A stretch of DNA of 7,958 nt. Source: a virus. Its lineage: Duplodnaviria; Heunggongvirae; Uroviricota; Caudoviricetes. Both the position numbers and the translations under genes were made by a program. The stretch spans positions 1-7,958 of the IMG/VR virus record IMGVR_UViG_2579778613_000007; one strand, 5' to 3'. The notes beneath the pieces are model-generated. The model saw nothing but the letters and a program-made list of their open reading frames with translations, made no database searches and had not been told where the DNA came from. This document shows positions 1 through 7,958 of this stretch, one piece after another; positions within the stretch are counted from its first letter, which is position 1; each line of letters starts with the position of its first letter.

Positions 1-228
1 GAGGGCTTTGCATTCTGCTTCGGTATACGTTTTACCGAGCATAATGTCTTTTCCGGTATGCCCGTAACATACAGTCCATACACCAACGATATCTTTATAT
101 GGTATGTAGCTGACGCCTTCCAGACCATCGTTACCACTTGGTCCAGTGATTAACACAGATGCTATAGCAATAGCCCCGCCACTTATCGCCGCTATTACGC
201 TATTTCGTAGTGCCGGTGACATTGCCAT
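1..228 (-). CDS. R: SAR endolysin (T4-lysozyme-type muramidase), phage 21 R-like; partial, 3' end lies beyond the window start
   Basis: ORF runs off position 1. ATG at 228-226 with GAGG 9 nt upstream (second ATG at 222-220). Translation [76 protein letters not shown]: Gly/Ala-rich signal-anchor-release segment followed by catalytic spacing E-x8-D-x5-T. Start overlaps the holin 3' end, as is usual in lambdoid lysis cassettes. Confidence 0.9.
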
Positions 229-403
229 TCAATCTGTCCTCGCGCTCTTTGCGCTTGTAGTACCAGTTGATGCCAAATGTGCCGACAGTACAAAGAATAC
301 CAATGATGACAGCCCAGTCATTCAGGGAGAGAATGCCACCCATCGCAGTCAGTCCTCCGAAGCTGTAACTGAACCATTCTCTGATTTTGTCCATACGGTA
401 CAT
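200..403 (-). CDS. Class II holin (pinholin-like, two predicted TM segments) with dual-start motif
   Basis: 67-aa [70 protein letters not shown]. Two hydrophobic segments, the first Gly/Ser-rich, and a charged C-terminus. Lies immediately upstream of and overlapping a SAR endolysin. Met1-Tyr-Arg-Met4 resembles holin/antiholin dual starts. SD GAAGGGG 6 nt upstream of Met1. Confidence 0.8.
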
Positions 404-409
404 GCTCTA

Positions 410-425
410 CCCCTTCATTGAGGGG
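410..425 (-). promoter_or_regulatory. Stem-loop sequestering the holin Shine-Dalgarno sequence (possible translational start-selection element)
   Basis: On the mRNA sense strand CCCCT-caatga-AGGGG forms a 5 bp stem whose 3' arm is the SD for holin Met1. Lambda carries an analogous hairpin (CCCCttattGGGGG, from memory) just upstream of S. Confidence 0.35.
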
Positions 426-530
426 ATTTGCTCTATTTAATTAGGAATAAGGTCGATTACTGATAGAACAAATCCAGGCTACTGTGTTTAGTAATCAGAT
501 TTGTTCGTGACCGATATGCACGGGCAAAAC

Positions 531-560
531 GGCAGGAGGTTGTTAGCGCGACCTCCTGCC
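531..560 (-). other. GC-rich perfect hairpin (10 bp stem, 10 nt loop) between tR' and the holin gene; possible attenuator or RNA processing element
   Basis: GGCAGGAGGT-tgttagcgcg-ACCTCCTGCC; on the minus strand it is followed by GTTTTG. I recall a near-identical hairpin at the same place in lambda. Confidence 0.3.
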
Positions 561-855
561 ACCCGCTTTCACGAAGATCATGTGTAGAAGGCAGCAGCGT
601 AACTATCACTGATGAATTCAGGATAGCCAGTGGCTACGGCTCAGTTTGGGTTGTGGCGGCCGGAATCGAACCGGCTTCCATCGGTGCGCTGCCGATTGCA
701 GTACGCGCGGCGGTCAGCTACATGACTAGTATTTTCACTGTCGCCTATCTGCTAGCTCGCCATTGAGCTTCACCACAACGATAAGAGCACTGCGCGGCAC
801 CTTTCACCAATTCCGCGAGGTCTGCGGGTTCAATGCTCTTACCTGTTGCACAGAT

Positions 856-913
856 ATAAAAAATCCCGAAACCGTTATGCAGGCTCTAACTATTACCTGC
901 GAACTGTTTCGGG
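856..913 (-). terminator. tR'-like rho-independent terminator of the late leader transcript
   Basis: Minus-strand stem CCCGAAAC...GTTTCGGG (865-913) containing an inner GCAGG...CCTGC hairpin, followed by ATTTTTTAT. Position is about 194 nt downstream of the inferred pR' start, as in lambda. Confidence 0.7.
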
Positions 914-1050
914 ATTGCATTTTGCAGACCTCTCAGCCTGCGATGGTTGGAGTTCCAGACGATACGTCGAAGTGACCAACTAGGCGGAATCGGTAGTAAG
1001 CGCCGCCTCTTTTTATCTCACTACCACAACGAGCGAATTAACCCATCGTT
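857..1050 (-). ncRNA. Lambda 6S-like late leader RNA (pR' start to tR')
   Basis: Interval between the inferred pR' +1 (plus coordinate 1050) and the tR' U-tract is 194 nt. The sequence is near-identical to what I recall of the lambda pR'-tR' region. No convincing ORF on this strand. Confidence 0.5.
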
Positions 1051-1085
1051 GGGTCAAATTTACCCAACTTTATTCAAAAAGTCAA
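1050..1085 (-). promoter_or_regulatory. Late promoter pR' with overlapping qut (Q-utilisation) region
   Basis: Minus-strand sequence TTGACT - 17 nt - TAAATT - TGACCC - AACGATGGG. The -35 and -10 hexamers have 17 nt spacing, and the -10-like AACGAT at +1..+6 matches the sigma-dependent pause element of lambda pR'. Located 43 nt downstream of the Q stop codon. Confidence 0.7.
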
Positions 1086-1127
1086 TATCATGCCGTTAAT
1101 ATGTTGCCATCCGTGGCAATCATGCTG

Positions 1128-1751
1128 CTAACGTGTGACCGCATTCAAAATGTTGTCTGCGATTGACTCTTCTTTGTGGCATTGCACCACCAGAGCGTCA
1201 TACAGCGGCTTAACAGTGCGTGACCAGGTGGGTTGGGTAAGATTTGGGATTAGCATCGTCACAGCGCGATATGCGGCGCTTGCTGGCATCCTTGAATAGC
1301 CGACACCTTTGCATCTTCCGCACTCTTTCTCAACAACTCTCCCCCACAGCTCTGTTTTGGCAATATCAACCGCACGGCCTGTACCGTGACAATCTCTGCA
1401 TCTTGCGCCCGGCGTCGCGGCACTACGGCAATAATCCGCATAAGCGAATGTTGCGAGCACTTGCAGTACCTTTGCCTTAGTATTTCCTTCAAGCTTTGCC
1501 ACACCACGGTATTTCCCCGATACCTTGTGTGCAAATTGCATCAGATAGTTGATAGCCTTTTGTTTGTCGTTCTGGCTGAGTTCATGCTTACCGCAGAATG
1601 CAGCCATTCCGAATCCGGCTTGTGATTGCGCCATCCCCATAGCAGCCATCACATCAGTACCGGAAAGAGAGTCAGAAGCCGTAGCCCGTGGTGAGTCGCT
1701 CATCATCGGGCTTTTTGGCGAATGAAATTTAGCTACGCTTTCGAGTCTCAT
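1128..1751 (-). CDS. Q: Late-gene antiterminator Q (lambda Q type, zinc-binding)
   Basis: 207-aa ORF MRLESVAKFHSPKSPMMSDSPRATASD...CRDCHGTGRAVD...CGRCKGVGYS...NAVTR with a Cys4 zinc motif; matches lambda Q as I recall it. Followed by pR'/qut. Start overlaps the ninH stop (ATGA). Confidence 0.95.
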   Translation of the reverse strand: MRLESVAKFHSPKSPMMSDSPRATASDSLSGTDVMAAMGMAQSQAGFGMAAFCGKHELSQNDKQKAINYLMQFAHKVSGKYRGVAKLEGNTKAKVLQVLATFAYADYCRSAATPGARCRDCHGTGRAVDIAKTELWGRVVEKECGRCKGVGYSRMPASAAYRAVTMLIPNLTQPTWSRTVKPLYDALVVQCHKEESIADNILNAVTR

Positions 1752-1936
1752 GGCCTTCCCCTTTTGCCCTGTTTGACCATCAGGACGCCGTTAACTATTA
1801 CGTGACGCTCGCCTTTGCTGTCTCGGTTGTACTTGAGCACTGTTCCTCTTGCGCAGGAAAGCATCCTCGCCACTTCGGTCTGATTTCCTCGTGTCTGGAT
1901 AAGAAGCTCTGGTATCGTTTGAATTGTGGCGTTCAT
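1748..1936 (-). CDS. ninH: NinH-like small DNA-binding protein
   Basis: 62-aa ORF MNATIQTIPELLIQTRGNQTEVARMLSCARGTVLKYNRDSKGERHVIVNGVLMVKQGKRGRP. Shares the GNQTEVAR..C.RGTV.KY core with lambda NinH. Sits directly upstream of Q; ATGA overlaps with both neighbours. Confidence 0.8.
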   Translation of the reverse strand: MNATIQTIPELLIQTRGNQTEVARMLSCARGTVLKYNRDSKGERHVIVNGVLMVKQGKRGRP

Positions 1937-2295
1937 GCGTTCTCCAGTTCGGTGATTTTTATTCCAAGCCTTCCGCCTGGTGCTTTCACACCACGAATTA
2001 CGCGAATGTCATCGAATTGCTCGTCGTCTTCCGCAAATCCGGCGTGGATAAGTGAGTCGAGTAAACCTTTCAGGATGTTATCGAGGTCGCGGCGGCGGGA
2101 GTCTGGAACGTCTGCGATTACTTTGATGCGGAGTCGTGATTTGGTGAAAATGTCTAACTTGAGTTGGCGGATGATTTTCTGAACGTCTTTTCGGTATTTC
2201 TGGCCTTTATCGCTGATGTGGTATTGGCTTCCCCGTCTTCGCCAGTAGGTATTCACCGACGGCGGGTATGGAAGCACAAACTGATATTCGTTCAT
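1933..2295 (-). CDS. rusA: RusA-family Holliday junction resolvase
   Basis: 120-aa ORF MNEYQFVLPYPPSVNTYWRRRG...DVPDSRRRDLDNILKGLLDSL...GGRLGIKITELENA with the RusA catalytic acidic motif (RRRDLDN). Strong SD GGAGGG 8 nt upstream of the ATG at 2295. Confidence 0.9.
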   Translation of the reverse strand: MNEYQFVLPYPPSVNTYWRRRGSQYHISDKGQKYRKDVQKIIRQLKLDIFTKSRLRIKVIADVPDSRRRDLDNILKGLLDSLIHAGFAEDDEQFDDIRVIRGVKAPGGRLGIKITELENA

Positions 2296-2708
2296 GGCTT
2301 AATCTTTCCCTCCTTCAGCAGTATCGCCTGGCTGAATACGACAAAGAGTGCGCGGGATTGCCACATCGAGTATCAGCAAGGAGAGAATATCAATCATCGG
2401 AACGCGGCAGAGAACGGTGTAACGCAGCCAAAAAGCGGTTCATTCAGAGCAACCCATGGAAAAGAAAAGCCCACATCATCGTGGGTAATTTTTTGCGCGA
2501 CGGTAAGCTAATCCGACCACCACAATGTGAGTGCTGCGGATCAGAATGTAAACCACAGGCGCACCACTGCGACTACAGCAAACCAACCGATGTGATGTGG
2601 CTCTGCAAGTCATGTCATGTCGAGTGGCACAAACATAACAAACCTATCTACCCAGAAGAGGAACCAGTAACTCTCCCCTTCCCTCGTCACGCTATTCACG
2701 CAATTTAA
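2268..2708 (+). CDS. HNH-like (His-Me finger) nuclease; start codon uncertain
   Basis: C-terminal motif CECCGSECKPQAHHCDYSKPTDVMWLCKSCHVEWHKH fits the HNH pattern CxxCG...HH...WLCxxCHxxxH. The stop TAA overlaps the SD of the next gene. The ATG at 2268 has no good SD and overlaps the rusA start on the opposite strand by 28 nt; the true start may be internal (for example TTG at 2358). Confidence 0.55.
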   Translation: MEAQTDIRSWLNLSLLQQYRLAEYDKECAGLPHRVSARREYQSSERGRERCNAAKKRFIQSNPWKRKAHIIVGNFLRDGKLIRPPQCECCGSECKPQAHHCDYSKPTDVMWLCKSCHVEWHKHNKPIYPEEEPVTLPFPRHAIHAI

Positions 2709-2716
2709 GGACTTAC

Positions 2717-3265
2717 ATGAATCACTTGATGGTTGACCTTGAAACAATGGGCAACGGGCCATACGCGCCAGTTATTTCTATTGGGGCGGTATTCTTTGAC
2801 CCGAATACCGGAGAAACAGGAGAAGAGTTCTCGGTAAATATCTCGCTTGAGTCATCAATGCGATATCGGGCGCGTCCTGACGCTTCAACGATTTTATGGT
2901 GGATGGAACAGAGTGAAGAAGCCAGAAAATCGCTAACCAGCAACACTCAGGAGCTTTCAACGGCTCTTTCATGGTTATCTGAATTCATCATAAAGAACGC
3001 TAACCACAAATTCGTTCAGGTTTGGGGGAATGGAGCATCATTTGACTGCGTTATTCTCCGAAACAGTTATTCGCTGACAGGGCAGCCAGTTCCGTGGCAG
3101 TGGTGGAATGACCGCGATGTAAGAACAATCGTCGAGCTTGGAAAGGTAATAGGATTCGACCCTAAGCGAGATATGCCATTCAAAGGAACTCGTCACAACG
3201 CGCTTGATGATGCCATCCACCAAGCCAAATACGTTTCAGCAATCTGGAAAAAATTAGCTAAATAA
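2717..3265 (+). CDS. DnaQ-like DEDDh 3'-5' exonuclease
   Basis: 182-aa ORF with all three exonuclease motifs: Exo I MVDLETMG (D, E), Exo II VWGNGASFD (D), Exo III HNALDDAIHQ (H, D). SD AAGGA 5 nt upstream of the ATG. Confidence 0.8.
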   Translation: MNHLMVDLETMGNGPYAPVISIGAVFFDPNTGETGEEFSVNISLESSMRYRARPDASTILWWMEQSEEARKSLTSNTQELSTALSWLSEFIIKNANHKFVQVWGNGASFDCVILRNSYSLTGQPVPWQWWNDRDVRTIVELGKVIGFDPKRDMPFKGTRHNALDDAIHQAKYVSAIWKKLAK

Positions 3266-3281
3266 TCAACAGGAGAAAATC

Positions 3282-3575
3282 ATGCCAGCGCCTCTGTATG
3301 GTGCGGATGACCCGCGCCGCTGTTCCGGCAATTCCGTATCGGAGGTGCTGGCTAAATTCAGAAAAAACTACGACCTGATAATGTCGCTACCGCAGGAAAC
3401 GAAAGAGGAAAAGGAATTTCGCCATTGTATATGGCTTGCAGAGAAAGAAGAACGCGAGCGAATTTACCAGACATCAATCCGACCATTCCGCAAAGCCACA
3501 TATACCCACTTCCCTGAAATTGACCCGCGCCTGCGTAATTACCGCTCACGCTATGGCGCTATCAGTAATGACTGA
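3282..3575 (+). CDS. Hypothetical protein (97 aa)
   Basis: ATG at 3282 preceded by AGGAG; co-oriented, 16 nt after the exonuclease stop. No recognisable domain. Confidence 0.6.
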
Positions 3576-3585
3576 GGAATTTACC

Positions 3586-3753
3586 ATGAGAGGACTTGCA
3601 TACAATCCCGGCATTCTTCAGGCAGAAATGATTATTCGCCAACGCGTAAAGCCAATGCCATCGAGAGAGGAATTGCTTAAGAGAAAGAGTTTCGGTTCTG
3701 TTAATGACAACAAATATCTGAATGCGATGTGGCGCAAAGGAGGCAACCAGTGA
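3586..3753 (+). CDS. Hypothetical small protein (55 aa)
   Basis: ATG at 3586 with GAGG 8 nt upstream. The longer ORF from 3436 in the track overlaps the previous gene in another frame and is less likely. Ends in the repeated motif AGGAGGCAACCAGTGA. Confidence 0.5.
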
Positions 3754-3804
3754 GTAATTCAGCACGACTACAGCTTGGTTTTTCACCGCTATCAAAAAAC
3801 TATC

Positions 3805-4005
3805 ATGCTGGCAAAAATGCGCGATGTTGAAGGTGGGCGTATGCGCGTTGGCAATGATCCAGGTCGTGATGTTACCAATGAGGATGCTCAATTGGTGTGG
3901 CAACTGGTCATGGCTGAAGGTGGTGAGATCGCGTGGGAGCTGGATGATGGTTCTCGCATGGTGTTGAAGGCAGAAAAACAGGAGGCAACCAGTGAACAAG
4001 ATTGA
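3805..4005 (+). CDS. Hypothetical small protein; start uncertain (ORF open from TTG at 3775, first ATG at 3805, no clear SD)
   Basis: Open frame ...MLAKMRDVEGGRMRVGNDPGRDVTNEDAQLVWQLVMAEGGEIAWELDDGSRMVLKAEKQEATSEQD. Its 3' end overlaps the start of the next gene by 14 nt. It may be the downstream part of a frameshifted gene. Confidence 0.4.
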   Translation: MLAKMRDVEGGRMRVGNDPGRDVTNEDAQLVWQLVMAEGGEIAWELDDGSRMVLKAEKQEATSEQD

Positions 4006-4486
4006 CTATCAGGCACTGCGTGAGGCGGCAGAGCGTGCAATTCAGGCAATGGAACGCCTGTTAATGTTGCCAGTTGATGATGATCTGATAAGCGAACAGG
4101 AACTTAAAGATTTCGGTGTGGATATTGATGCGCTCAACGCCTTCAAATTTCTGGCCGGACCAGAAACCGTGCTGGCACTACTTGATGAACGGGAAGCAGA
4201 CAAAAAGCGCATTGCAGAACTGGAAGCTCGGGAAATAAAACCAGCCAAAGGTGAAGTTCTTGTCGTTGTTTCTGGTTTTACTGGTTGCGGAAAAAGCGCC
4301 ATTGCCGGGGAAATAGAAATCGCGATGAAGGCTATTGGTGTACCGGTTCAGTGGACTAATGGCGATGCGGAAAAGCGCATGACAGGAGCTGACTGGCTGA
4401 CAGCGATTGAGATGTACAAACCAACTGTGCGCATCGTGGAAGTTAATGTGCCACGCGTCGCTGGAATTCGCATCAAAGGAGAGTGA
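3992..4486 (+). CDS. Ead/Ea22-like early-region protein
   Basis: GTG start with AGGAGG 6 nt upstream. The N-terminal YQALREAAERA and central TVLALLDERE motifs match what I recall of Ead/Ea22-like prophage proteins. The C-terminal part carries a Walker-A-like GFTGCGKS. Confidence 0.6.
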   Translation: MNKIDYQALREAAERAIQAMERLLMLPVDDDLISEQELKDFGVDIDALNAFKFLAGPETVLALLDEREADKKRIAELEAREIKPAKGEVLVVVSGFTGCGKSAIAGEIEIAMKAIGVPVQWTNGDAEKRMTGADWLTAIEMYKPTVRIVEVNVPRVAGIRIKGE

Positions 4487-4487
4487 T

Positions 4488-4685
4488 ATGGATAAAAACA
4501 CCACTGCCTACTGGAGTCTGTCACTTGATACCGAATGTCCCAAATGTGGTCACAATTTCGATCTGCTTTGTGATCCAGATTTCTGGGAGTTTTCTGGAGC
4601 TAAACAGGCATGTGAAGAAATAAAAGGTTACGAAACATGCTGTCCAGAATGTAACCATGAATTTAAAACAGATTTCGTGTATTGA
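4488..4685 (+). CDS. Small zinc-ribbon protein (65 aa)
   Basis: MDKNTTAYWSLSLDTECPKCGHNFDLLCDPDFWEFSGAKQACEEIKGYETCCPECNHEFKTDFVY with two Cys pairs (CPKC ... CPEC). The ATG lies 1 nt after the upstream TGA within the repeated module AAAGGAGAGTGATATG. Confidence 0.6.
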   Translation: MDKNTTAYWSLSLDTECPKCGHNFDLLCDPDFWEFSGAKQACEEIKGYETCCPECNHEFKTDFVY

Positions 4686-4695
4686 GGCATAACAA

Positions 4696-4812
4696 ATGAC
4701 CACTATTACCAAAGAATGGCTACAGAAAACGATTACCAGCATTGAGTCAGCACGGGATGAAATGCCGTTCGGACTCGATGAAGATCAAAGCAACATGCTT
4801 ACCGCAATTTAA
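4696..4812 (+). CDS. Short ORF (38 aa), possibly the N-terminal remnant of a frameshifted gene
   Basis: ATGACCACTATTACC... (MTTITKEWLQKTITSIESARDEMPFGLDEDQSNMLTAI). Its first 11 nt are identical to the start of the DUF551-like gene at 4979, and the N-terminus resembles MTTIIDKK...LNELITNIEFAAR. Confidence 0.3.
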   Translation: MTTITKEWLQKTITSIESARDEMPFGLDEDQSNMLTAI

Positions 4813-4978
4813 AATTGCACTGGCATCACTGGAAGCAAAACCAATAGGTGCTTTCCACATTGCAGAACAGCAAGTTGACGGCACAAGTGACTATCTCAAG
4901 GATGGAGAATGGCCTATTGATAATGGGATTATTGAAGTCTACACCGCGCCGCCATGCTTCAGGGTAAAGGAGAGTGAT

Positions 4979-5542
4979 ATGACCACTATAATCGATAAGA
5001 AACAGTATCCAGGCGAGCAATATCTTAATGAGCTGATCACCAACATAGAGTTTGCTGCAAGGGCACCAGTTGAAGTCGTGAGAGCAATGGCAGCAGAGCT
5101 ACAGAAGCGGCGCGAAGCTGATAGTGCCGAACCTGCAAGTAATCATGAAGAGTTGCCACTTGATTATCTCCAAGGTCAAAAAGATGGTCTTGAATGGGCT
5201 GCGCAGCTTGCAGAAGCAAATCACCCACAAACTGGCGACTGGCTTTACGATGACCCGCTGGAGCTGGCTAAAGCTATCAGAAAAGGTCCTGACATGCCCG
5301 AATTCGATGGACCAGCTCCGGTAACTCCGGATGGCTGGATAAGCTGTAGTGAGCGAATGCCAGATGATGGTCAGCACGTAATTATTTTATGTGATGGCGC
5401 ATTCGTTCTTTATGCGCAATATCGAGACAGTGAGTTTTTTGATGTTGTCCGCAATGGTGAGGAGTTCTTCGAAACGCAGAGCCGCAATGTAACCCACTGG
5501 ATGCCGCTACCGGAACCGCCGCAGGAGGCTGACAATGGCTAA
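4979..5542 (+). CDS. DUF551-like phage protein; the same frame is open upstream to 4757/4742, so an N-terminally extended form is possible
   Basis: C-terminal PDGWISCSERMPDDGQHVIIL...NVTHWMPLPEPP is the pattern I associate with DUF551. The ATG at 4979 is preceded by AAAGGAGAGTGAT, the same RBS module as at 4475-4490. Confidence 0.65.
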   Translation: MTTIIDKKQYPGEQYLNELITNIEFAARAPVEVVRAMAAELQKRREADSAEPASNHEELPLDYLQGQKDGLEWAAQLAEANHPQTGDWLYDDPLELAKAIRKGPDMPEFDGPAPVTPDGWISCSERMPDDGQHVIILCDGAFVLYAQYRDSEFFDVVRNGEEFFETQSRNVTHWMPLPEPPQEADNG

Positions 5543-5819
5543 TCTGCAACTGGCAGTGAACGGCGAATACTTCGACCAGATGAAGCGGGGCGAGAAAACG
5601 GAAGAGTATCGCCTGTGTAATGACTACTGGAATAAGCGAATTATGTTCCGGGAGTATGACCGCCTGATTATCACAAAGGGATATCCGAAGCGCGACGATT
5701 CCAGTCGCAGAATTGATGTTCCGTATGGTGGATATGAAATCAAGACAATCACACATCCGCACTTCGGCGATAAACCGGTAAAGGTGTTCGCGATAAAGGT
5801 GAATATCGGCAATGAATAA
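5535..5819 (+). CDS. ASCH/PUA-like small protein (94 aa)
   Basis: MANLQLAVNGEYFDQMKRGEKTEEYRL... The G-x-K-T-x-E-x-R signature near the N-terminus and the size fit an ASCH-type fold. AGGAGG 6 nt upstream of the ATG; overlaps the DUF551-like gene stop by 8 nt. Confidence 0.5.
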   Translation: MANLQLAVNGEYFDQMKRGEKTEEYRLCNDYWNKRIMFREYDRLIITKGYPKRDDSSRRIDVPYGGYEIKTITHPHFGDKPVKVFAIKVNIGNE

Positions 5820-5822
5820 CAT

Positions 5823-5847
5823 CCTCGCACTCGCGGGGATTTCTTTT
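5823..5847 (+). terminator. Rho-independent terminator (first of a tandem pair)
   Basis: Stem CCTCGC-actc-GCGGGG (one G-U pair) followed by ATTTCTTTT, 4 nt after the ASCH-like stop codon. Confidence 0.55.
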
Positions 5848-5852
5848 ATCTG

Positions 5853-5877
5853 AACTCGCTACGGCGAGTTTTGTTTT
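5853..5877 (+). terminator. Rho-independent terminator (second of a tandem pair)
   Basis: Stem AACTCGC-tacg-GCGAGTT followed by TTGTTTT. Confidence 0.6.
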
Positions 5878-5890
5878 ATGGAGACAAGAA

Positions 5891-6235
5891 ATGTCAGATT
5901 TGGCTATGAAGATTTTGAAATGGCAATCGACTGGCGATGTCGGCATCAGTAGCGCAACTCTTGCCTCAATCGCATGTGGACTGAAAAAGAATATCTATGG
6001 TCATCACTTCGGCGCTCCACATGATGCAGCCGATTTCCGGCGATGCGTTGCACTTGTTGAGCAGATTCCAGAAATCAGAGATTCATTCGACAAGGTTGCA
6101 AAGCGCGTTCCGGCATTCAAAGGAATCCTCAACGAATGGGATTCACTCGTTGCTCTGTTGAAGTCTGAAATGAAGACGTACGGGAACAAAGCACCAGAGA
6201 CTTACAGAAGAATCAGCGAGCTACGCAAGGACTAA
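5891..6235 (+). CDS. Hypothetical protein (114 aa), moron-like gene flanked by terminators
   Basis: ATG at 5891 with GGAG 7 nt upstream. Product MSDLAMKILKWQSTGDVGISSATLASIACGLKKNIYGHHFGAPHDAADFRRCVALVEQIPEIRD... has no domain I recognise. Terminators lie on both sides. Confidence 0.6.
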   Translation: MSDLAMKILKWQSTGDVGISSATLASIACGLKKNIYGHHFGAPHDAADFRRCVALVEQIPEIRDSFDKVAKRVPAFKGILNEWDSLVALLKSEMKTYGNKAPETYRRISELRKD

Positions 6236-6292
6236 CCCGCCTCACACTCGATGAGGCATTTTCATTTATCAAGATATCCAGACCTACCATCG

Positions 6293-6313
6293 CCGCATCA
6301 ATGCGGTTTTTTT
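6293..6313 (+). terminator. Rho-independent terminator
   Basis: Stem CCGCA-tcaa-TGCGG followed by TTTTTTT, 58 nt after the stop of the 114-aa gene. Confidence 0.65.
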
Positions 6314-6358
6314 ATTGCCTGATTTGCAGGTTCGATTCCCTATTCGGAGATAGCACTC

Positions 6359-6559
6359 ATGCAACACGAACTACAACCTGATTCACTGGTTGATTTGAAA
6401 TTCATCATGGCCGATACTGGCTTCGGTAAAACCTTCATCTACGACCGGATTAAGTCCGGCGACCTGCCAAAAGCCAAAGTTATCCACGGACGAGCAAGAT
6501 GGTTATATCGTGACCATTGTGAGTTCAAAAATAAGCTCTTAAGTCGCGCCAATGGGTAA
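6359..6559 (+). CDS. AlpA/Xis-family excisionase-like DNA-binding protein
   Basis: 66-aa ORF MQHELQPDSLVDLKFIMADTGFGKTFIYDRIKSGDLPKAKVIHGRARWLYRDHCEF... Shows the AlpA-type winged-helix pattern (I..TG.GKT.IY..I..G..P...VI.GRA.W). GGAG 9 nt upstream of the ATG. Confidence 0.8.
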   Translation: MQHELQPDSLVDLKFIMADTGFGKTFIYDRIKSGDLPKAKVIHGRARWLYRDHCEFKNKLLSRANG

Positions 6560-6609
6560 AATAGCGGGTAAAATATTTTTCACATATAAAAAATACCATT
6601 CCAATCAAT

Positions 6610-6641
6610 CCCCTGCCGCTTCAAGTAGATGTCTGCAGGGG
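6610..6641. repeat. Inverted repeat CCCCTGC - 18 nt - GCAGGGG in the ORF-free tract
   Basis: Perfect 7 bp inverted repeat, preceded by an AT-rich stretch (6572-6598). Function unknown. Confidence 0.3.
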
Positions 6642-7035
6642 ACACCAGATACCCTTCAAACGAAATCTACCTTCACCCCGTAAAAGATGGGTTTGGCAGC
6701 ACACTTGCCTTATATCTACTCATTTTTACTGCAACAGGTTGAAATCTCAGCACTGTCAGAAAGCGCTGATGACTAAACAGCCCTGGGCCGGGCGATGTAA
6801 CCATCACACAGAATCCTGATAGCGAAATATGGCGTGACTCGATACTTCACTCCGCAATGCATTCCTTGATGAATTCGCAGGACCGTGATACACGGGACAG
6901 GTCACTGAATGACGACAATGTCCTGGAAATCAGCGAACCGCGCATCTGAAGTACATTTGAGCGACTGTACCAGAACATGAATGAGGCGTTTGGATTAGGC
7001 GATTATTAGCAGGGCTAAGCATTTTACTATTATTA

Positions 7036-7079
7036 TTTTCCGGTTGAGGGATATAGAGCTATCGACAACAACCGGAAAA
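7036..7079. repeat. Inverted repeat TTTTCCGGTTG - 22 nt - CAACCGGAAAA immediately 3' of the permease gene; possible bidirectional terminator or boundary hairpin
   Basis: Perfect 11 bp inverted repeat 10 nt downstream of the permease stop (7089-7091 on the minus strand). A/T tracts lie inside the stem rather than after it, so it is not a classical intrinsic terminator. Confidence 0.35.
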
Positions 7080-7088
7080 AGTTTACGT

Positions 7089-7958
7089 CTATATTGCTGA
7101 AGGTACAGGCGTTTCCATAACTATTTGCTCGCGTTTTTTACTCAAGAAGAAAATGCCAAATAGCAACATCAGGCAGACAATACCCGAAATTGCGAAGAAA
7201 ACTGTCTGGTAGCCTGCGTGGTCAAAGAGTATCCCAGTCGGCGTTGAAAGCAGCACAATCCCAAGCGAACTGGCAATTTGAAAACCAATCAGAAAGATCG
7301 TCGACGACAGGCGCTTATCAAAATTTGCCACGCTGTATTTGAAGACGGATATGACACAAAGTGGAACCTCAATAGCATGTAACAGCTTCACTAATGAAAT
7401 AATCCAGGGGTTAACGAACAGCGCGCAGGAAAGGATACGCAACGCCATAATCACAACACCGATAAGTAATGCATTTTTTGGCCCTACCCGATTCACAAAG
7501 AAAGGAATAATCGCCATGCATAGCGCTTCGAGTACCACCTGGAATGAGTTGAGATAACCATACAGGCGCGTTCCTACATCGTGTGATTCGAATAAACCTG
7601 CATAAAAGACAGGAAAAAGTTGTTGATCAAAAATGTTATAGAAAGACCACGTCCCCACAATAAATATGACGAAAACCCAGAAGTTTCGATCCTTGAAAAC
7701 TGCGATAAAATCCTCTTTTTTTACCCCTCCCGCATCCGCCGCTACGCACTGGTGATCCTTATCTTTAAAACACATGTTGATCATCATAAATACAGCGCCA
7801 AATAGCGAGACCAACCAGAAGTTGATATGGGGACTGATACTAAAAAATATGCCGGCAAAGAACGCGCCAATAGCATAGCCAAAAGATCCCCAGGCGCGCG
7901 CTGTTCCATATTCGAAATGAAAATTTCGCGCCATTTTTTCGGTGAAGCTGTCAAGCAA
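7089..7958 (-). CDS. LacY-family oligosaccharide:H+ symporter (MFS), possibly a CscB-like sucrose permease; partial, 5' end beyond the window end
   Basis: The 289-aa C-terminal portion aligns by eye with LacY: EKMARNFHFEYGTARAWG vs EKVSRRSNFEFGRARMFG, DQQLFPVFY vs DQQFANFF, PKNALLIGVVIMALRI vs GKNALLLAGTIMSVRI, LHAIEVP vs LHMFEVP (LacY H322/E325 region). Multiple hydrophobic TM segments. AT-rich codon usage unlike the phage part. Confidence 0.9.
   Translation of the reverse strand: MLDSFTEKMARNFHFEYGTARAWGSFGYAIGAFFAGIFFSISPHINFWLVSLFGAVFMMINMCFKDKDHQCVAADAGGVKKEDFIAVFKDRNFWVFVIFIVGTWSFYNIFDQQLFPVFYAGLFESHDVGTRLYGYLNSFQVVLEALCMAIIPFFVNRVGPKNALLIGVVIMALRILSCALFVNPWIISLVKLLHAIEVPLCVISVFKYSVANFDKRLSSTIFLIGFQIASSLGIVLLSTPTGILFDHAGYQTVFFAISGIVCLMLLFGIFFLSKKREQIVMETPVPSAI

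Follow-up and report, generated by a model that had tools for sequence, protein, structure and literature searches.

Is a small phage gene enclosed by terminators a moron, transcribed alone from a repressed prophage, or part of a larger transcription unit? We addressed this question in a stretch of 7,958 nucleotides (nt) from a tailed phage (Caudoviricetes; positions 1 to 7,958 of record IMGVR_UViG_2579778613_000007), here called the window, in which a gene for a protein of 114 amino acids (aa) lies between predicted intrinsic terminators just ahead of an excisionase gene. A preliminary description, made from the letters alone, had read this layout as a classic moron, the form in which prophages carry lysogenic-conversion, superinfection-exclusion or defence genes. 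With moderate confidence, we favor another explanation. In the leftward early (pL) operon, the 114-aa gene would be the last exchangeable cassette of the exo-xis region, set within a terminator array before the excisionase gene torI.

The open reading frame (ORF) at 5891-6235 is a genuine stand-alone phage accessory gene under purifying selection. It lies on the + strand, begins with ATG and encodes a protein of PHROG 1229, a family of unassigned function, with a predicted seven-helix fold. The Shine-Dalgarno sequence ascribed to it earlier was confirmed as a GGAG ribosome-binding site at 5880-5883 (+ strand), with the ATG 7 nt further on; the sequence around this GGAG, TATGGAGA, is common to the window gene, lambda orf55 and 933W L0063. 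Copies in HK022, mEp043, Huey, 2851 and Stx1a-converting phages share 96-99% protein identity, and those in P22-like Salmonella phages are 61% identical to the 114-aa protein. For five lambdoid copies, the Nei-Gojobori ratio of nonsynonymous to synonymous substitution rates (dN/dS) is 0.07-0.27 in nine of ten pairs; the closest pair, in which only five sites differ, gives 0.42. At least 80% of the 511-base-pair interval searched at this locus is found in 861 of 5,426 complete E. coli genomes, and 2,481 of them match part of it. We are highly confident of the identity and architecture of the gene region.

Four terminator-like hairpins surround the gene. We located them by a pattern scan for a stem-loop followed by a T-tract on the same strand as the gene (+), with energies scored as z against shuffled sequences. 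Upstream stand hairpin 1 (stem-loop 5821-5840, or 5821-5850 with its tail TTCTTTTATC; -12.2 kcal/mol, z -5.4) and hairpin 2 (stem-loop 5852-5871, or 5852-5881 with its tail TGTTTTATGG; -11.9 kcal/mol, z -3.6), whose tail extends into the ribosome-binding site. Hairpin 3 (stem-loop 6239-6257, or 6239-6267 with an interrupted U-tract; -9.1 kcal/mol, z -3.9) begins directly past the stop codon, and hairpin 4 (stem-loop 6292-6307, or 6292-6314 with T7; -8.3 kcal/mol, z -2.1) is the final predicted terminator ahead of torI. The interval 5400-6800 holds five terminator-like sites, compared with 1.3 ± 1.6 in shuffles. The tandem terminators placed at 5823-5877 by the preliminary description thus correspond to two stable hairpins. 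Its single strong downstream terminator at 6293-6313 is hairpin 4, which has the only uninterrupted U-tract of the four but also the least stable stem, and hairpin 3 had been missed. A single accessory gene with its own ribosome-binding site and intrinsic-terminator-like hairpins on either side is what both accounts share.

By sequence comparison, these hairpins are a shared array of predicted lambda-type terminators upstream of the excision-factor gene, not the private signals of a moron. Hairpins 1 and 2 match lambda t3 and t4 as predicted by Bloch et al. 2014 (PMC4195576, Table 4), where the predicted t5 stands 3' of orf55. The segment 5800-5900, which carries this pair, is present in 317 phage records, and the two hairpins exceed 90% identity across lambda, 933W, HK022, 2851 and P22-like phages; in each of these a different gene follows them as the last one ahead of xis. 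In alignments, they and the ribosome-binding site precede unrelated genes, orf55 in lambda and L0063 in 933W, and they are also present in 2851 and E. coli W; scans of lambda, HK022 and 933W return identical hairpins, so the locus shares the lambda t3/t4 linkers. HK022, 2851, E. coli W and the K-12 prophage KplE1 all have a conserved hairpin 3. HK022 has hairpin 4 as well, and homology with the window stops right past its U-tract, where a different xis starts. All four are therefore conserved among other phages, and the idea that they bracket this gene as its own terminators was not upheld, since hairpins 1 and 2 precede unrelated genes and hairpins 3 and 4 follow yfdT in K-12.

The array belongs to the slot and not to the gene family. 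Each of the lambdoid phages examined has three to five intrinsic-terminator-like hairpins in the last 0.3-0.7 kb before the excisionase gene, whichever type of excisionase it encodes. Flanking terminators are absent from the two distant loci that we scanned, a marine prophage (L012) and a Halopseudomonas prophage (L018), which places the hairpins with the enterobacterial slot. An Rfam scan of 5600-7100 gave no match near gathering scores.

The order of genes and hairpins in this slot suggests that cassettes are exchanged at the linkers. Lambda reads ea8.5, t3, t4, orf55, t5, xis; 933W reads t3, t4, L0063, a t5-like hairpin, xis; and HK022 reads ASCH, t3, t4, an orf55 homologue, t5, the 114-aa gene, hairpin 3, hairpin 4, xis. 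The window has the HK022 arrangement minus the orf55 cassette. In E. coli W (L002, 6363-7163), an extra gene for a 266-aa hypothetical protein, with its own hairpin, sits precisely between the counterparts of hairpins 1 and 2, an insert that, read from sequence, shows the gain of a cassette at a linker. At some sites in E. coli W and phage 2851 a hairpin has been swapped for a different hairpin and U-tract, as at the hairpin 4 site of 2851. In K-12 KplE1, the unrelated yfdT is followed by hairpin 3, hairpin 4 in degenerate form and the torI leader. Megablast alignments to E. coli genomes end at the hairpin edges: 5821, 5863, 5884-5893, 6257-6265 and 6311-6312.

Comparison of these slots also touched on gene annotation. 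The HK022 RefSeq record (NC_002166, L003) leaves unannotated both the orf55 homologue (59 aa, 3295-3474) and the 114-aa gene (3501-3845), which stands directly 5' of xis. In K-12 MG1655 (L022), the hairpin 4 equivalent no longer pairs, and the annotated ypdJ (b4545, 6095-6235) spans the conserved hairpin 3 linker upstream of torI and so may not be a real gene. We rejected K-12 YfdT and YpdJ as homologues of the 114-aa protein. Lambda orf55 was likewise dismissed as a truncated homologue of the 114-aa gene: the sequences are unrelated, and HK022 carries both.

The locus thus closely resembles the terminal slot of lambda's exo-xis region (orf55, also lambdap31, in lambda and L0063 in 933W; PMC4195576; Donaldson 2021, PMC8614690). 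Both hold the last gene or genes before xis on the pL strand, both have the same upstream twin hairpins and ribosome-binding site (over 90% nucleotide identity), and both follow the gene-then-hairpin pattern; HK022 carries the orf55 homologue and the 114-aa gene in tandem. The 114-aa protein itself is unrelated to L0063 and to Orf55, which has a 55-aa beta/alpha fold. The window also departs from lambda in its excisionase, TorI of the KplE1/HK620 type and not lambda Xis, in having the integrase at the opposite prophage end, and in the loss of its operon promoter.

Operon context places the gene late in the leftward early transcript. In the window, a lambdoid/P22-like E. coli prophage occupies the argW site beside cscB, with the order exonuclease, Abc2, Ea22, DUF551, ASCH, 114-aa gene, TorI. 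Directly ahead of the hairpin array is a 94-aa ASCH-like gene (PHROG 625; 5535-5819, + strand), which HK022 also has at this place. Beyond the array, the excisionase expected from the preliminary description is torI (6359-6559, + strand), a recombination directionality factor of the KplE1/HK620 type. Intact relatives carry on one strand a cI-like repressor, Ral, kil, Rad52, ssb, a 3'-5' exonuclease, Abc2, an Ea22-like gene, DUF551, Eag or ASCH, the 114-aa gene and TorI, followed by attR and cscB, an order that makes the 114-aa gene the penultimate gene of the leftward early operon. This part of the pL strand, flanked by the recombination genes and xis, is what the lambda literature calls the exo-xis region (PMC3824215, PMC4195576, PMC8614690).

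From this position we propose how the slot would work. The terminator array would limit the slot genes and xis or torI to N-modified polymerase arriving from pL, so that their expression would come early in infection or induction and be shut off in a repressed lysogen. The conserved linkers would double as joints at which cassettes of ribosome-binding site, gene and hairpin are swapped between phages. A place at the distal end of an N-antiterminated leftward operon predicts early lytic expression, not expression in the repressed lysogen. We think it likely that intact phages express the gene early and dependent on antitermination and that the remnant in the window is silent, with both read-through and the gating of torI argued from position. 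Runs of four or five predicted terminators directly before different excisionase genes (those for the Xis of lambda, HK022 and 933W, and for TorI) suggest a general means of silencing the excision factor without antitermination, and the same runs would also serve as recombination joints. Because intS in KplE1-type prophages has constant low-level expression, control over excision rests mainly with the recombination directionality factor gene (Panis et al. 2010, PMC2951348).

In the window itself the operon has lost its controls. Deletion has left a remnant of the prophage: its homology to intact relatives sets in near 2326, and N, pL, the repressor, cro and replication genes are all missing from the window. 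Since pL, N and the repressor are gone, the 114-aa gene, although intact, is most likely untranscribed here, judging from what the sequence retains. A second prophage remnant, CUVET18-1475, decayed independently and still has the 114-aa gene and torI intact.

Members of the family occur in several other settings. In Pseudomonas, Halopseudomonas and marine prophages, the family gene lies one to three genes upstream of xis/int, with Lar, Mom or orphan methylases further upstream; other contigs have it close to Lar, a DUF3850 gene, or Tad2-like, Sequestin or Tad5 genes. Among the genes on its strand up to 5 kb away are Abc2, Ral, Lar, Mom, orphan methylases, Tad2-like, Tad5 and Sequestin. Escherichia, Klebsiella and Vibrio phages of 56-60 kb carry it among small early genes, with no integrase in the stretches viewed, and in PDP46 and Kpn BU9 it follows an exonuclease gene, overlapping its stop codon. 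All-against-all BLAST of flanking ORFs from 11 contexts found no conserved partner gene, which indicates that the gene works as a single autonomous unit. Phages of Proteobacteria and of Actinobacteria carry the family, temperate ones as well as apparently non-temperate ones, and its presence where no integrase was found nearby argues against a lysogeny-specific function.

Two of these settings hold neighbors of separate interest. In the marine prophage, a gene that separates the family member from the excisionase (L012, 5415-6185) codes for a protein of 256 aa, with no Pfam match recorded; by visual reading, its N-terminal SGGxxS would be the motif of a PP-loop ATPase (PAPS-reductase-like). 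An unrelated phage from metagenomic data has a DUF3850 gene (L015, 4270-4584) two genes upstream of the family member. We take DUF3850 to be related to ASCH, and an ASCH-type gene, seen in the window and HK022 and possibly in this phage, may be a recurring neighbor of the family.

As a moron, the gene would be transcribed alone under repression, from a promoter hidden in the linker, and would confer superinfection exclusion, defence or another conversion trait. Morons were reportedly defined by Juhala and Hendrix for HK97 and HK022. Like those, the window gene is a single gene with its own ribosome-binding site, present or absent between similar genomes, with a factor-independent terminator immediately downstream (hairpins 3 and 4, both also seen in other contexts) and with kin in structural modules. 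It sits between genes that are adjacent in relatives, and the slots of lambda, 933W, HK022, E. coli W and K-12 all differ. Unlike those, it lies inside an early operon and along its direction of transcription, between hairpins common to other cassettes. Its guanine-cytosine content (0.47-0.49 over the ORF, 0.42-0.51 in the flanks) is not distinct from that of its neighbors.

The promoter that a moron should have immediately upstream was not found. Our scan, which detects consensus-type promoters only, returned no sigma-70-like promoter in 5400-6800 on either strand, in agreement with the earlier remark that no obvious sigma70 promoter fits between the terminators and the Shine-Dalgarno sequence. 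Such sites are depleted on the + strand throughout 2200-7100, with 1 against 6.8 ± 2.8 expected. The one match, at 7006-7033, is outside the prophage genes, between torI and cscB. PADLOC-DB 2.0 defence profiles contain no family that matches the 114-aa protein at E <= 0.1. The moron architecture first proposed therefore stands as to the downstream terminator, the ribosome-binding site and the polymorphic slot, and falls on the promoter, the composition and the shared hairpins. Because hairpin-delimited exo-xis cassettes are a known lambdoid feature, the label should not be taken here as evidence of a lysogen-expressed defence gene.

Several observations nevertheless weigh against an early, antitermination-dependent cassette, and some of them speak for a moron. 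Three phage types carry the family gene as an opposite-strand insert in tail or head modules, a position typical of prophage-expressed morons. One of these inserts, on an uncultured phage contig (L024, 3940-4547), shows the family in what is a textbook moron layout: its member here is paired with a 56-aa ORF in a two-gene unit opposite the tail and head genes, with a promoter-like site (TTGACT-18-TAAACT, 3940-3969) and a strong terminator (4528-4547). That the gene is intact in two independent remnants, the window and CUVET18-1475, could mean that the host benefits from it. The hairpin linker may hide a weak or non-consensus promoter, and Bloch et al. 2014 (PMC4195576) predicted a promoter overlapping lambda t2. 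Hairpins 1-3 carry interrupted U-tracts, and termination at them is predicted. The case for counter-defence is drawn from neighborhood and distribution, and early accessory regions hold many other kinds of gene. Finally, the characterized exo-xis proteins Ea22, Orf63, Orf60a and Orf61 act on the lysis-lysogeny decision (PMC3824215, PMC8614690). Set against the missing promoter and the operon-wide depletion of such sites, the ordinary composition, the empty defence search, the shared linkers and the members in phages with no integrase in the regions viewed, these points leave a classical moron improbable, and we do not think that the protein serves lysogenic conversion or exclusion.

The protein belongs to a very large family whose predicted fold has no solved relative. 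It matches PHROG 1229 over its full length (E = 2e-51; residues 1-114 against profile positions 1-113 of 116), with PHROG 8038 and PHROG 15291 as partial families alongside; PHROG 1229 has no annotated function, so membership gives no mechanism. Of the 4,559 clusters (50% identity) retrieved with a profile that we built from 93 diverse members, 3,276 had E <= 1e-10. As anticipated, the product has no recognizable domain: Pfam, NCBIfam and PADLOC are all empty for the 114-aa protein, and for the 93 aligned members Pfam returned nothing beyond sporadic chance matches. Twenty longer relatives were scanned; one has FHA, TPR and DUF6585 domains, and the rest are tandem repeats or have no Pfam domain. 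A literature search returned no paper that names the protein accessions or PHROG 1229.

Structural searches led to the same result. AlphaFold2, given the 93-member alignment, produced an all-helical model of seven helices (mean predicted local distance difference test score 96, predicted template modelling score 0.89). Searches of PDB sequences with the single sequence and with the 93-sequence profile gave nothing below E = 0.1, and Foldseek with the model found no solved relative (best E 1.6). Matches in BFVD are to uncharacterized proteins only, one from a Clavibacter phage (E = 4e-4) and a borderline one from the giant virus Sylvanvirus (E = 0.04, 17% identity). The remote homology check that the preliminary description had called for, by profile and by structure, thus yielded no domain, enzyme or solved fold. 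Across the family W11, S20, A25, P43, D45, D48, R51, C52 and P60 are invariant, and G15, G18, S21, E61, W83, E93, A101, T104 and Y105 nearly so.

These properties bear on whether the protein regulates development. Such a regulator would adjust the choice between lysis and lysogeny or the moment of excision, perhaps by binding DNA, RNA polymerase or recombination proteins, and this would account for the position next to xis/int. In E. coli lambdoids and P22-like phages, as in the Pseudomonas, Halopseudomonas and marine prophages, the gene does share a strand with xis/int and is found one to three genes upstream of them, and exo-xis genes are reported to influence lysogenization and induction (PMC3824215, PMC8614690). 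The family also occurs far from integrases, however, both within structural modules and in phages in which we saw no integrase. A helix-turn-helix protein would combine a profile or fold match with a basic surface, a combination not found here: only one of the 93 members has a helix-turn-helix Pfam match, at E = 0.037. The family has a median isoelectric point of 5.9 and a net charge of -2, and the putative recognition helix, past a glycine-rich turn, consists of invariant small or hydrophobic residues, features that argue against a DNA-binding helix-turn-helix. We give a developmental regulator the same slim chance as a moron.

What the early cassette would encode is a small helical domain with a conserved putative polar cluster, binding a widely conserved ligand or host component during lytic growth. 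That this makes it an early host-takeover or counter-defence factor is a tentative proposal, which draws on the neighborhood, the occurrence in apparently non-temperate phages and the invariant polar cluster, which persists across distant phyla of hosts. Like the early counter-defence genes Ral, Lar, Abc2, Gam and the Tad and Acb-type sponges, it is a small stand-alone early gene of the same regions and often their neighbor, although the 114-aa protein shows no sequence or fold similarity to any of them. It is rather unlikely, but conceivable, that the family forms a new class of such factors, with a putative Ser-Ser / Asp-x-x-Asp / Arg-Cys pocket that binds a universal ligand. If so, the ligand could be an immune signalling nucleotide, say, or some conserved machine of the host, and terminator-delimited slots before xis would be a dedicated exchange site for these genes.

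The least probable reading, a mechanistic variant of the early factor in which a small enzyme or small-molecule binder uses the Ser-Ser, Asp-x-x-Asp, Arg-Cys and Glu residues as a putative pocket for a nucleotide or universal metabolite, draws on at least ten polar residues that do not vary, or hardly vary, between phages of Proteobacteria and Actinobacteria despite about 30% overall identity, a breadth unusual for inhibitors of a single host protein, and on the Tad2-like, Tad5 and Sequestin families nearby, but it finds no likeness to any enzyme or binding fold, no invariant His and no metal-binding motif.

The architecture of the locus is ordinary and largely described already for lambdoid phages, and it holds a real gene of a very large family. 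A large family, a confident model and the lack of an assigned fold make the protein a good candidate for experiments, and HK022 and mEp043, which are tractable model phages and practical systems for such work, carry copies that are 97% identical to it.

The remainder of the window shows how the prophage decayed. Directly abutting the leftward-operon remnant is a block of genes on the - strand: Q (1128-1751), a NinH-like gene (1748-1936) and RusA (1933-2295). The window contains no tRNA genes. An ORF of 146 aa at 2268-2708 (+ strand) overlaps the start of rusA and matches the HNH-type endonuclease family PHROG 2340, while its first 21 residues match a different family, PHROG 10845; the homologous stretch in strain WP7-S17-ESBL-01 carries no gene annotation. 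This ORF is probably a chimera made at the deletion junction. Further along, the Ea22-like ORF at 3992-4486 (+ strand) and a 92-aa double zinc-ribbon ORF at 4407-4685 (+ strand, PHROG 4173) overlap by 80 nt in different frames, and the true start of the latter is probably an internal ATG.

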